From Candidatus Bipolaricaulia bacterium (GTDB taxonomy: Bacteria; Bipolaricaulota; Bipolaricaulia; JBHIAT01), in assembly GCA_046758705.1 (NCBI GenBank), contig JBHIAT010000067.1:1-17444 (forward strand): 17,444 nt of DNA. Reading direction: 5' to 3'. A program made the position numbers and the translations under genes. The number at the start of each line of letters is the position of its first letter. Positions within the stretch are counted from its first letter, which is position 1. Shown one piece after another: positions 9,153-12,234 of this stretch. The notes beneath the pieces are model-generated. The model did not search any database. It was given only the letters and a program-made list of their open reading frames with translations, and was not told the origin of the DNA.

Positions 9153-9181
9153 ATGATAGTGCGATTCAGCCGCGAGGTCAA
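9153..9181 (-). promoter_or_regulatory. Sigma70-type promoter of the DinB-family gene
   Basis: TTGACC(9181-9176)-17 nt-TATCAT(9158-9153), then 7 nt to ATG 9145; no SD. Confidence 0.65.
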
Positions 9182-9193
9182 TTATCATGTCAT

Positions 9194-10488
9194 AAAGTTT
9201 GCGTGTCGGAAACCCCGCACCTGGGTGCGGGGAGGAGACCCGCCAAGTCCGTTAGGACTTGCCTCCCACCCCCCTCCATGAGCTATAATTATAGCGCTAT
9301 GCCCGAAGTGACCAAGACTCTCAAAGTGAAACTTAACCCCGGAACCCAGGAAAAACGCGCCCTGGATGACACCATGCACCTGGTGAGTGAGGTCGCCAAT
9401 TATATCGCGAACGTGGCCCATGAAAACCGATGCTGGAATAAGGTCGCCCTGCATCACCTGACCTACTACGACGTGCGTGAGAAGTTTGCGCTTCCCGCCA
9501 ACTTGGCCTGTACCACCAGAGACAAGGTGGCCGAAGCCTGCAAGTCGGCCAAGACCAAGCGAAAGCGGAAATTCAGCCGATATACGCCCATCCGGCTGGA
9601 TGCCCGCACGTTTGGCATCTTGAAGGACGGCCGGGCTTCGATCTCGACGGTCCAAGAGCGCATCCGCGTCCATATGGAGATGGGTGACTGGCAGCGATCC
9701 GTCCTCAACACCTGGAAAGTGAACGGGGCTGCCGAAATCACCTACCGGAAACAGACGGATACTCACTATCTTCACATCGTCGTTAAGCGAAATGTGGATC
9801 CGCCCGAACCGACCGAACGGAACCGAACCGTCGGCGTGGATATGGGCATGTACAACCTGGCCACAACGAGTCACGGCCAGCAACATTCGGGTCATCAAGC
9901 CCATCAGATTCGTCGCCACCACCGAAACCTGCGCAGGCAACTCCTTTCCAAAGGCACACGGGGCAGTCGGCGTCTCGTGAAACGGCTTCGGGGGAAGGAA
10001 CGCAGGCAGGTGCAAGCGATCAATCATGTGATTAGCCGCCGCATTGTCGACTCCCTGGAACCCGGCGATACCCTCGTGTTGGAAGACCTGACCTACATCC
10101 GAGAACGGGTGAAGCCACGGAAAGAACAACGCGCTGATTTCCACGCGTGGCCGTTCAGGCAACTTCAACAGTTTATCGAGTACAAGGCCCTGGAGCGTGG
10201 AATTGCGGTGATCCACGTCGATCCCCGGGACACATCGAAGACCTGTTCTCGGTGTGGCCGTTATGGTTCTCGAAACGGCCATAAATTCTCCTGTTCCGCA
10301 TGTGATCATCGCAATCATGCCGATTTCAATGCGGCGTACAACCTTGTTCGGGTGGCGAGTGTGGCGCACCCGGCTGGGCCACGGTCAACTGGCCCCGAAG
10401 CAACGTCCGTTGACGCCGAAGCCCCGCCTTCGGGGAATTGAGGCCGAGGACGGTTGCAAGCCCCGGACCTTGGTCCGGGGTAGTTGAC
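9194..10488 (+). mobile_element. Non-autonomous IS200/IS605-family element (IS1341-like, tnpB only), 1295 bp, target TCAT
   Basis: Left hairpin CCCCGCAC-CTGG-GTGCGGGG (9213-9232) preceded by GAAA. Right hairpin CCCCGGAC-CTTG-GTCCGGGG (10461-10480) preceded by CAAG and followed by TAGTTGAC. No tnpA and no target duplication; removal restores an ORF. Confidence 0.9.
9299..10441 (+). CDS. tnpB: RNA-guided endonuclease TnpB (about 380 aa)
   Basis: N-terminal TLKVKLNP; RuvC-I VGVDMG, RuvC-II LVLEDL, Zn finger TSKTCSRC...FSCSAC, RuvC-III HADFNAAYNL; all three acidic catalytic residues present. Start ATG 9299 follows TATAAT (9284-9289). Confidence 0.96.
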   Translation: MPEVTKTLKVKLNPGTQEKRALDDTMHLVSEVANYIANVAHENRCWNKVALHHLTYYDVREKFALPANLACTTRDKVAEACKSAKTKRKRKFSRYTPIRLDARTFGILKDGRASISTVQERIRVHMEMGDWQRSVLNTWKVNGAAEITYRKQTDTHYLHIVVKRNVDPPEPTERNRTVGVDMGMYNLATTSHGQQHSGHQAHQIRRHHRNLRRQLLSKGTRGSRRLVKRLRGKERRQVQAINHVISRRIVDSLEPGDTLVLEDLTYIRERVKPRKEQRADFHAWPFRQLQQFIEYKALERGIAVIHVDPRDTSKTCSRCGRYGSRNGHKFSCSACDHRNHADFNAAYNLVRVASVAHPAGPRSTGPEATSVDAEAPPSGN

Positions 10489-10508
10489 TGAAGATCTTGC
10501 AAAAGAAC
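10349..10508 (+). ncRNA. Predicted TnpB omegaRNA (reRNA): scaffold to 10488 plus flank-derived guide TGAAGATCTTGCAAAAGAAC
   Basis: Stems CGGGTG/CACCCG (10349-10372), GGGCCA/TGGCCC (10376-10395), GCAACGTCC/GGACGGTTGC (10400-10457) enclosing CCCCG/CGGGG, and the right-end hairpin. Loop GTCAAC (10384-10389) is complementary to terminal GTTGAC (10483-10488). The 5' boundary and guide length are estimates. Confidence 0.72.
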
Positions 10509-11061
10509 AAGCTCTCCAGGAGATTGGTCTATAAAGTAGCCCGCTATCGGGCCAGGTATATGGTCAGCAAGATAGAACCATACCTCAATCAGCAGGACGA
10601 CATATTGGATATTGGAGCCGGAACTTGCACTATATGCGAGGCTTTACGGGAAAAAAGTTCAAGGTCACCCCTTTGGACGTTCAAAACTTGAGCTTCGTTG
10701 ATCAGATAGAACCAGTGATCTACGATGGCGATAATATGCTATTTGAGGATGACCGGTTTGATGTCGCATTGATCTTGACCGTCTTGCACCATACCCCTCA
10801 TCCCGAAAAAGTTATTAACGAAGCAAAGCGAGTTTCTAAAAGGATCGTCATCATTGAAGACATCTATATGAACTTCATCCAGAAGTATCTGACTTACTTT
10901 TTCGATAGTCTGTTGAATCTTGAGTTCACGGGGCATCCACACACCAATAAGAATGACCAGGAATGGAAGGCGCTGTTTGAACAGTTAGGATTGAAATTGA
11001 AAGATGCAAAGTACAAAAGATCGTTATTGCTGTTCAAAAATGTGACTTATCACCTTGAAAA

Positions 11062-12234
11062 ATGAAATGGCTCCAGATCTTCGAACAGAAGGCTCAACAA
11101 CACCACGATCTGTGGGCAGCAGCTGGGGTGCATTATATGGGGGCAGACATCTCCCTATTGCTGGGAGACCTGCAAAAAGCCGAGGAGTATGCGTATAGAG
11201 CACTCGAAACTGCAGAACGCGTGGGGGACAAAATCGGTATAGCCATGAGCCATTATCGAATTGATACGATCGCGCTTTGCCAGGGTTCTTGGAAACAGGC
11301 CACGGATGCGTTTCAGACGACCTCACAACTATGTGGAGAACTCGGTTCTCTGGAGAGCTGTGGAACTCGATCGGTTAATGAACGGATAACGCTTGCTTTA
11401 GGGCAAGTGTATCTGACGAACGGCAAACGACAGGAGGCGGTGAAGCAATTTGAACGGGTTATGACCCTGGCGAAACCCGATGATTCTGTGCTCGTTGACG
11501 CATTGAGCAGACTCGAAGAAGCGTATGACGATCCCGAAGCATTCCGTGCCTTTTGTCATCGCTTCCGAGAAGAACATCCCGAGATTGGTGACTCACCTTT
11601 CGTCCAGTGGTTTCTTGAAATGGCAGAAACTCGGGAGTTCTCGGAAACTCTCTTTCACGACGAGTTTGCAGAGTCGCTTTCGTCTTCATGGGTCTGGCAG
11701 GATCCATTTGATGACTGCTCGTTCACGGTGCATAGCGATCTGCAACTTCATGCCGCGAACGGGCGAGAACTCTGGCACACTAACCTGAGCGCTCCCCGCA
11801 TTTTACAGCCGGTTTCGGGAGATTTTTCGGTTCAGACGATCTGCGTGCCCGTCTCCAGAGGAAAACCTGCTATCGGTGGGATTTTGCTGTGGAAGGACAA
11901 GGAGAACTTCCTGCGGCTCGACAAAGGAACCCGAGGTACGGACGAAGTCTCGTTCATGGGATGCCTGGGGAACGAAGATGTGTTCATCGGACGCGGGCAC
12001 TTGGCTTGCGAGCGTGCCTTCCTGCGCCTGGAGCGGCTAGGAGGTCGCGTGAACGCCCTGTGTAGCGCAGACGGGGTGAACTGGTACACCGCCGGATCTG
12101 CGGGCTTTCTAGTTGAGAACCCGGTTAAGGTTGGTGTTTGCGCCATCGGCGCTATTGACCGCACCATCTATCACGGTGCTTACCCGGAAGGGACAGCGAT
12201 TCGGTTCGAGTCGTTCCAGTTGCGGGGGAGATAG
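11062..12234 (+). CDS. Tetratricopeptide-repeat protein with C-terminal concanavalin-like beta-sandwich (DUF1349-like); possibly N-terminally truncated
   Basis: TPR-like helices (LGDLQKAEEYAYRAL, LGQVYLTNGKRQEAVKQFERV), then FHDEF...WVWQDP, NLSAPRILQPVSGDF, LRLERLG, CSADGVNW. ATGA overlap with the methyltransferase stop. Confidence 0.7.
   Translation: MKWLQIFEQKAQQHHDLWAAAGVHYMGADISLLLGDLQKAEEYAYRALETAERVGDKIGIAMSHYRIDTIALCQGSWKQATDAFQTTSQLCGELGSLESCGTRSVNERITLALGQVYLTNGKRQEAVKQFERVMTLAKPDDSVLVDALSRLEEAYDDPEAFRAFCHRFREEHPEIGDSPFVQWFLEMAETREFSETLFHDEFAESLSSSWVWQDPFDDCSFTVHSDLQLHAANGRELWHTNLSAPRILQPVSGDFSVQTICVPVSRGKPAIGGILLWKDKENFLRLDKGTRGTDEVSFMGCLGNEDVFIGRGHLACERAFLRLERLGGRVNALCSADGVNWYTAGSAGFLVENPVKVGVCAIGAIDRTIYHGAYPEGTAIRFESFQLRGR

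Follow-up and report, generated by a model that had tools for sequence, protein, structure and literature searches.

A tnpB-only, non-autonomous insertion sequence of the IS200/IS605 family, a common kind of known element, occupies positions 9194 to 10488 (1295 bp, + strand) of the window, that is, of the whole 17,444-nucleotide stretch of Candidatus Bipolaricaulia DNA that was analysed. The best explanation of the data as a whole, which we hold with high confidence, is that this tnpB-only element lies directly 3' of TCAT in codon 3 of a methyltransferase gene, that guides of the IS608 type specify its ends, that its TnpB would favour its retention in the manner of a published model, and that the interrupted gene is broken twice. 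Both the ends and the likely transposon-adjacent motif (TAM) of such an element were readable from a single copy by the published IS608 rule and could then be checked with a metagenomic empty site. This is of use for annotation and for the choice of TnpB, omega RNA and TAM sets, and no new biology is added by it. Most of the derivation had been made in an earlier note on this DNA, and the letters and coordinates on which it was built (ATG at 9187-9189, TCAT at 9190-9193, GAAA at 9209-9212, CAAG at 10457-10460, TGAC at 10485-10488, and GAGGT followed by 8 nt) were all found to be correct. The derivation itself is correct, yet it is an application of published rules and of a published retention model.

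Ends of the element and the empty site

The stretch was present in four public runs of one hydrothermal-vent study (X1 to X4), and the assembly may stem from X1 and X2. When contigs from these runs were compared with the window, the occupied allele was found letter for letter in X1, X2 and X3. The fourth run, X4, comes from a different sample and represents a related strain (~94 % identical). One of its contigs (635 nt, depth 5.6) joined position 9193 directly to position 10489, so that exactly the 1295 bases of the element were skipped. The left side of this contig matches 8587-9193 (607 nt) with 34 substitutions and a 4-nt gap, and the right side, which starts at 10489, is made up of the final 30 letters only. 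Among the differences listed for the contig, a list that leaves out 29 further ones, none lies within 9163-9193. The X4 contig is an empty site and fixes the ends of the element at 9193|9194 and 10488|10489, with no target duplication. The earlier note had proposed that this junction be sought in relatives and in reads. It was present in the X4 contig and in none of the reference relatives, as no flank match was found in the same-class genomes (n = 40) and the genome set contained no close relatives.

Insertion 3' of a set tetra- or pentanucleotide and a seamless empty site, by which members of the IS200/IS605 family are recognized, were both observed: TCAT precedes the element, and at the X4 joint no letter fits either side and none stands between the two sides. 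Instead of terminal inverted repeats, the element has a subterminal hairpin at each end, 19 nt inside the left end and 8 nt inside the right end.

If the X4 joint came from an unrelated organism or from a chimeric contig, the ends would not be independently established. Joints with a likeness below 95 or with short sides do often come from other organisms, and here the right side is 30 nt only and the depth is only 5.6. We nevertheless consider such an origin extremely improbable, because 607 nt of a DinB-like neighbour gene and the intergenic region match at ~94 %, of the thousands of positions possible the joint connects precisely the two that were predicted, and there are no letters common to both sides that could have caused a false join. 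As regards the history of the empty site, an ancestral, never-occupied site and the product of a precise excision are not separable by the sequence of the joint. The divergence of the flank (~6 %) suggests that the empty site comes from a sister lineage. No excised allele was observed in the contigs of X1-X3, which says nothing either way as contigs drop rare variants.

The right cleavage site, TGAC (10485-10488, + strand), constitutes the final four bases of the element. Apart from the X4 joint, it was delimited by six other right ends in the same genome, which diverge directly after TGAC. All six end in ...GGGGTAGTTGAC and share ...CCCCGGAC-loop-GTCCGGGGTAGTTGAC, and their similarity is lost directly after ...GTTGAC. 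Five of them are located at contig ends and one is internal, with the caveat that contig C241 shows only 3 letters past the end and that these are identical to those of contig C44. A further right-end-like contig in X4 departs from the window sequence at 10488, and short high-depth contigs of X1-X3 also stop at this position.

The left cleavage and target site, TCAT (9190-9193, + strand), lies outside the element. It is located by the empty-site joint (9193/10489) and is the site predicted by the left guide, and it is the putative TAM. The element is present as a single full copy in its genome, and no second copy was found in the own genome, in 40 same-class genomes, in the genome contigs (best TnpB 43 %) or in the metagenome contigs (best 46 %). 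The closest TnpB by protein search was 64 % identical and the closest for which DNA was fetched was 46 % identical. As no second copy was found, neither the preference for a 5' flank nor the TAM draws confirmation from sister copies, and the likely assignment of TCAT as the TAM is based on one insertion, the pairing rule and relatives. The alignment of other copies, which had been suggested as a check on both ends, bore out the TGAC| end in six other right ends but had no second copy from which TCAT| could be read.

Guides, hairpins and the fold of the left end

The ends were compared with those of IS608 from Helicobacter pylori (IS200/IS605). According to the passages of the IS608 paper that were compared, a spacing of 19 nt separates the left cleavage site from the foot of the hairpin 3' to it, the right site follows its hairpin at a distance of 10 nt, and the foot of either hairpin is preceded on its 5' side by a guide of four bases, the left one of which includes A+18 (PMC3201880). 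In the same passages, the second guide base, A-34, is the partner of T-4 and the first, G-35, that of C-3, and for A-2 there is no guide partner (PMC3201880). The rule used in the earlier note, by which guide positions 1, 2 and 4 pair with site positions 2, 1 and 4, agrees with this part of the description.

On the left, the guide GAAA (9209-9212, + strand) occupies element positions +16 to +19, as in the IS608 passages, and is directly followed by an inner hairpin with a perfect 8-bp stem and a 4-nt loop (9213-9232, + strand). On the right, the guide CAAG (10457-10460, + strand) is directly followed by a hairpin that also has a perfect 8-bp stem and a 4-nt loop (10461-10480, + strand) and that shows compensatory changes in relatives. 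When both ends were folded as single-stranded DNA, z-scores against shuffles were -2.4 for the left end and -3.6 for the right end. The rule predicts TCnT from GAAA, where TCAT was observed, and TGnC from CAAG, where TGAC was observed. All six rule-specified letters match (chance 2.1e-4 with the base composition of the window). As the ends are fixed by the X4 joint, the two predictions that had been made from the guides were met at independently placed ends. By IS608 pairing, the 4-nt guides at the 5' hairpin feet would specify the cleavage sites, namely TCAT, which belongs to the left flank, and TGAC, with which the element ends on the right.

As far as the compared passages go, the element resembles IS608 in its subterminal hairpins with a 4-nt guide at each 5' foot, in seamless insertion and excision, in the crossed pairing (with T at site position 1 and A at site position 3 at both ends) and in a left site that is external to the element, at a distance of 19 nt from the hairpin. 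It differs in several respects. IS608 has both tnpA and tnpB, whereas this element has tnpB only; the cleavage sites of IS608 are TTAC and TCAA, whereas TCAT and TGAC were found here; and the right site is 10 nt from the hairpin in IS608 and 8 nt in this element.

The pairing rule was also applied to the right ends of TnpB relatives. A total of 145 fetched loci with a complete 3' end and enough flank were used; the longest perfect hairpin of at least 7 bp near the stop codon was picked, and the predicted site was required to end 6-13 nt past it. Such a hairpin was present near the 3' end in 43 of the 145 loci and the predicted site in 21 of these 43, compared with a mean of 8.4 fits when the guides were shuffled among loci (21 was reached in 0 of 1000 shuffles), for loci that are not independent and with a picked hairpin that is sometimes the wrong one. 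The relatives that fit the rule include two classes in which guide and site covary, one with CAAG or CAGG and TGAC, the other with GAAC and TCAG. In addition, AAAG was seen by eye together with TTAC in loci L091-L093.

In the four relatives whose left ends were inspected, the left hairpin was preceded by TCAT at a distance of 18-24 nt (two of the four have 19 nt), with the reservation that those ends are not independently fixed. Left ends of another type were read by eye and carry little weight, as the ends of these elements are unverified. L090 (GCGA with GCAT, 19 nt) fits the rule, C27 (GGGA with CCAT) fits it in one register only, L010 (GCGA versus ACAT) does not fit it, and C19 is ambiguous.

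When the left end was folded as DNA, a structure of two tiers was observed (9201-9243, + strand). An outer helix (9201-9207/9237-9243, 6 of 7 positions paired) encloses the internal loops GGAAA and AGGA and, within these, the inner hairpin at 9213-9232. The same two-tier fold was found in L091:575-636, L092:525-586, L093:373-434 and L094:609-675, where the inner hairpin again has 8 bp and the loops read GGA(A/T)A and AGGA(A). The left ends of the relatives were folded singly, and their 3' internal loops vary in length by one base. All five left ends form the outer helix with 6-7 of 7 pairs, and this pairing is kept although the letters of the helix are wholly different among the five elements.

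An additional outer helix around the left guide and hairpin is not mentioned in the IS608 passages compared, and this covarying helix is the only feature of the element that has no counterpart in the passages that served for comparison. A tentative reading, about which we have more doubt than conviction, is that the left end of this clade is built unlike the IS608 textbook case, with the guide and the invariant AGGA(A) placed in an internal loop that is clamped by the 7-bp outer helix. The helix would then be a possible extra element of specificity or control for left-end cleavage, and hence for which TnpA mobilises these tnpB-only elements.

TnpB, the predicted omega RNA and a putative transposase in trans

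The tnpB gene (9299-10441, + strand) encodes 380 aa and matches Pfam OrfB_IS605 and Cas12f1-like_TNB (PF01385, 37.8 bits; PF07282, 81.8 bits; both above the cut-off). The RuvC residues D181, E262 and D342 and the zinc finger cysteines C316, C319, C332 and C335 are present, and the D-E-D triad and the four Cys are in register with solved TnpB/Cas12f chains. It is the RuvC and zinc-finger half that aligns with the solved structures (E-value 1.9e-19 to 9nzp_A and 2e-5 to 8bf8_A), in a set that also contains 8j3r_A and the TnpB chains of 8bf8, 8exa and 8h1j. Only residues ~146 to 352 align, and no sequence match was found for the N-terminal half in the PDB search.

A TATAAT or TATACT box was seen by eye 6-10 nt before the tnpB start in the window (9284-9289), in loci L010, L090 and L091 and in contigs C19 and C27. 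The position of this box suggests a leaderless tnpB mRNA. The TATAAT at 9284-9289 is absent from the list produced by the consensus promoter scan of the + strand.

A probable omega RNA scaffold takes in the 3' end of tnpB and continues to the last base of the element (10330-10488, + strand, with an approximate extent derived from a consensus fold with three relatives). In these four sequences, the right-end hairpin and one second stem are paired through compensatory changes. The Rfam search for an omega RNA matched no family and returned three sub-threshold matches at chance level only. The adjoining flank (10489-10508, + strand) is, by its position in the published model, the putative guide of the omega RNA and its target, with a length of 16-20 nt. 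The 16- and 20-nt sequences 3' of the right end occur at one genomic locus only, where they are preceded by GTTGAC and not by TCAT; the predicted guide would thus match the empty allele, in which the flank is next to TCAT, and spare the occupied one.

This scheme follows the one described for ISGst elements of Geobacillus stearothermophilus, which are tnpB- or iscB-only and are mobilised in trans. In the parts of that study that were compared, TnpA and TnpB/IscB read the same motif adjoining the left end, TTCAT is the measured TAM of a related ISGst element and TTCAC is the corresponding right-end motif (bioRxiv 10.1101/2023.03.14.532601). The element in the window is likewise non-autonomous, with TnpB and an overlapping (here predicted) omega RNA, and TCAT and TGAC are close to the TTCAT and TTCAC of ISGst. 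It differs from the ISGst case, as presented in those parts, in that activities were measured there, whereas they are predicted here, and in that the ISGst element with TTCAT encodes IscB and not TnpB. In a literature search for TnpB together with TCAT (as a whole word) and TAM, no such report was found; TTCAT was found in Meers et al.

The ISGst model, in which the TAM is common to TnpA and the nuclease and the donor joint consists of the TAM and the right flank, was applied here by analogy. A Y1 transposase (TnpA) supplied in trans would cut and rejoin at 9193|9194 and 10488|10489, so that the top strand is excised and the flanks are resealed by an enzyme made elsewhere. The omega RNA would derive from the right end and the 3' part of tnpB, and its guide would be the flank that starts at 10489. 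In the empty allele this flank is preceded by TCAT, and TnpB would cut there; in the occupied allele it is preceded by TGAC and would be spared. Recombination with, or repair from, a sister copy would reinstate the element. Both TCAT as the probable TAM and retention by cutting of the empty site follow the published model, and the idea of retention is that published model and not a new one.

The transposase itself would be encoded elsewhere. No tnpA, the gene for the Y1 HUH transposase that characterizes the IS200/IS605 family, is located within 9194-10488, which places the element among the tnpB-only, non-autonomous kind. The family is described, in the part of the preprint compared, as including such elements (bioRxiv 10.1101/2023.03.14.532601). 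Six genomic matches to the Y1 transposase family PF01797 were found, all six over the cut-off and all in other elements; four of the six cover most of the 121-position model without an internal stop, and intact TnpA genes are located on C27, C207 and C257. In C27, the sole complete tnpA-tnpB element that was read, the left hairpin differs from that of this element. As none of the Y1 transposases of the genome is linked to this element or its hairpins, ongoing excision is hypothetical.

The element could therefore be an immobile relic which has no cognate TnpA and never excises, with a TnpB that is idle or has a non-homing role, e.g. as a guide-RNA-directed regulator like the nuclease-dead TldR proteins. 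Such a relic would agree with the absence of tnpA from the element, with its single copy in the genome, with the different hairpins of the C27 tnpA-tnpB element and, weakly since contigs drop rare variants, with the lack of an excised allele in the X1-X3 contigs. Against it, both ends, the guides and the cleavage sites are intact and mutually consistent, and the D-E-D triad and zinc finger of TnpB are intact, unlike those of nuclease-dead derivatives. Furthermore, right ends related to this one are found in several copies in the same genome and interrupt its assembly at five contig ends, which points to recent activity of some transposase on such ends. We regard the relic as improbable.

Related right ends and miniature elements were observed at several places. 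Contigs C151, C123, C101, C44 and C241 of the same genome (G000) end 23-27 nt inside a right end of the same type. Five contig ends inside such right ends indicate that the related elements are multi-copy and break the assembly. The bodies of these multi-copy elements were not found in the binned contigs, and the 23-mer inside the end was present only in C151 and C123. A 254-nt element without tnpB was found at C41:17301-17554 and C241:4-257 (99.6 % identical, with different flanks); its right end reads ...GGGGTAGTTGAC, and a short hairpin (CACCCGTGTGGGTG) lies close to its start. It resembles a miniature element that carries a right end of this type. A second tnpB-only element is located at C19:28171-29400 (- strand) of G000. 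Its TnpB is 44 % identical, its right guide is CAAG, and it ends in ...TTCATGAC, 8 nt after an imperfect hairpin. Two same-class genomes carry a right-end-like hairpin and tail with no tnpB match nearby (L008, G025:C217:148-180, TAATTGAC; L009, G007:C87:33216-33257, TAGTTTAC), and these may be solo ends or miniature elements.

The interrupted methyltransferase gene

The gene that is interrupted begins at 9187-9193 (+ strand) with ATG TCA T, which comprises two full codons, the start codon included, and the initial base of codon 3. A ribosome-binding-site-like GAGGT (9174-9178, + strand) stands 8 nt before the ATG. The remaining part of this class I SAM methyltransferase gene (10489-11065, + strand, 41.6 % G+C) was recognized by a match to Pfam Methyltransf_11 and by its homologues, which cover it in two reading frames, and is a pseudogene. 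The Methyltransf_11 match lies in the 3' part (30.7 bits compared with a cut-off of 21.2), and a full-length open frame is absent. A search with the 3' part (10625-11062) gave 422 homologues at E<=0.001; among the matches listed, most are 194 aa long and many are named as proteins of the Parcubacteria group.

All of the 194-aa homologues that were fetched (14/14) have the same N-terminal length and start with M-x-x-x-F/V-L-Q/K-K. The N-terminus of the restored empty allele, M-S-L-K-I-L-Q-K, has the length found in these 14 proteins, as expected from the MSLKILQ-length start that the earlier note had proposed to check in homologues. Residue 3 of the homologues aligns at 10488-10490. Given homologues of 194 aa with the same N-terminal length, the element splits codon 3, and the empty allele reads ATG TCA T|TG AAG, as had been deduced previously and as both the X4 joint and the homologue alignments demonstrate. 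The element would thus have inserted directly 3' of TCAT, in codon 3 of a 194-codon gene for a SAM-dependent methyltransferase, and no target bases would have been duplicated.

When three homologues were compared with the window by tblastn, residues 3-58 were found in one frame up to 10655 and residues 56-194 in another frame, one base back, from 10646. The frame switches between 10646 and 10655, and this means that the A6 run at 10651-10656 (+ strand) lacks one base and carries a -1 frameshift relative to the homologues. Precise removal of the element had been stated to leave the start in frame with the downstream methyltransferase; this is true for the first 58 codons and fails beyond them at the frameshift.

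A homopolymer run is a common site of error, and the assembly may itself have been built from two of the three sequencing runs that cover it (X1 and X2). If the frameshift were a sequencing or assembly error, the gene would be intact save for the insertion and excision would restore it. However, the separately built contigs of X1, X2 and X3 carry the same run (0 other letters and 0 gaps at depth 10-12), and X3 is not marked as a source. An error was consequently judged very unlikely. Because the run is without an indel in these contigs, the frameshift was taken as real and not as an assembly slip.

Two lesions, the insertion and the -1 frameshift, each make the methyltransferase gene a pseudogene. 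Owing to the second lesion, precise excision would give a stub of 64 codons and not a working enzyme, and retention of the element no longer decides whether the methyltransferase works. The proposal that TnpB selects against excision and so keeps the gene inactivated is moot, since excision would not restore the gene; with the frameshift as another cause of inactivity, the idea does not apply at this locus.

The remnant has a G+C content of 41.6 %, compared with 57.1 % for the genome and 54-57 % for the neighbours. Its best homologues are 65-70 % identical and belong mostly to bacteria of the candidate phyla radiation. By composition and similarity, the methyltransferase looks like a horizontally acquired gene in decay. 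Its stop codon overlaps the ATG of the next gene (11062).
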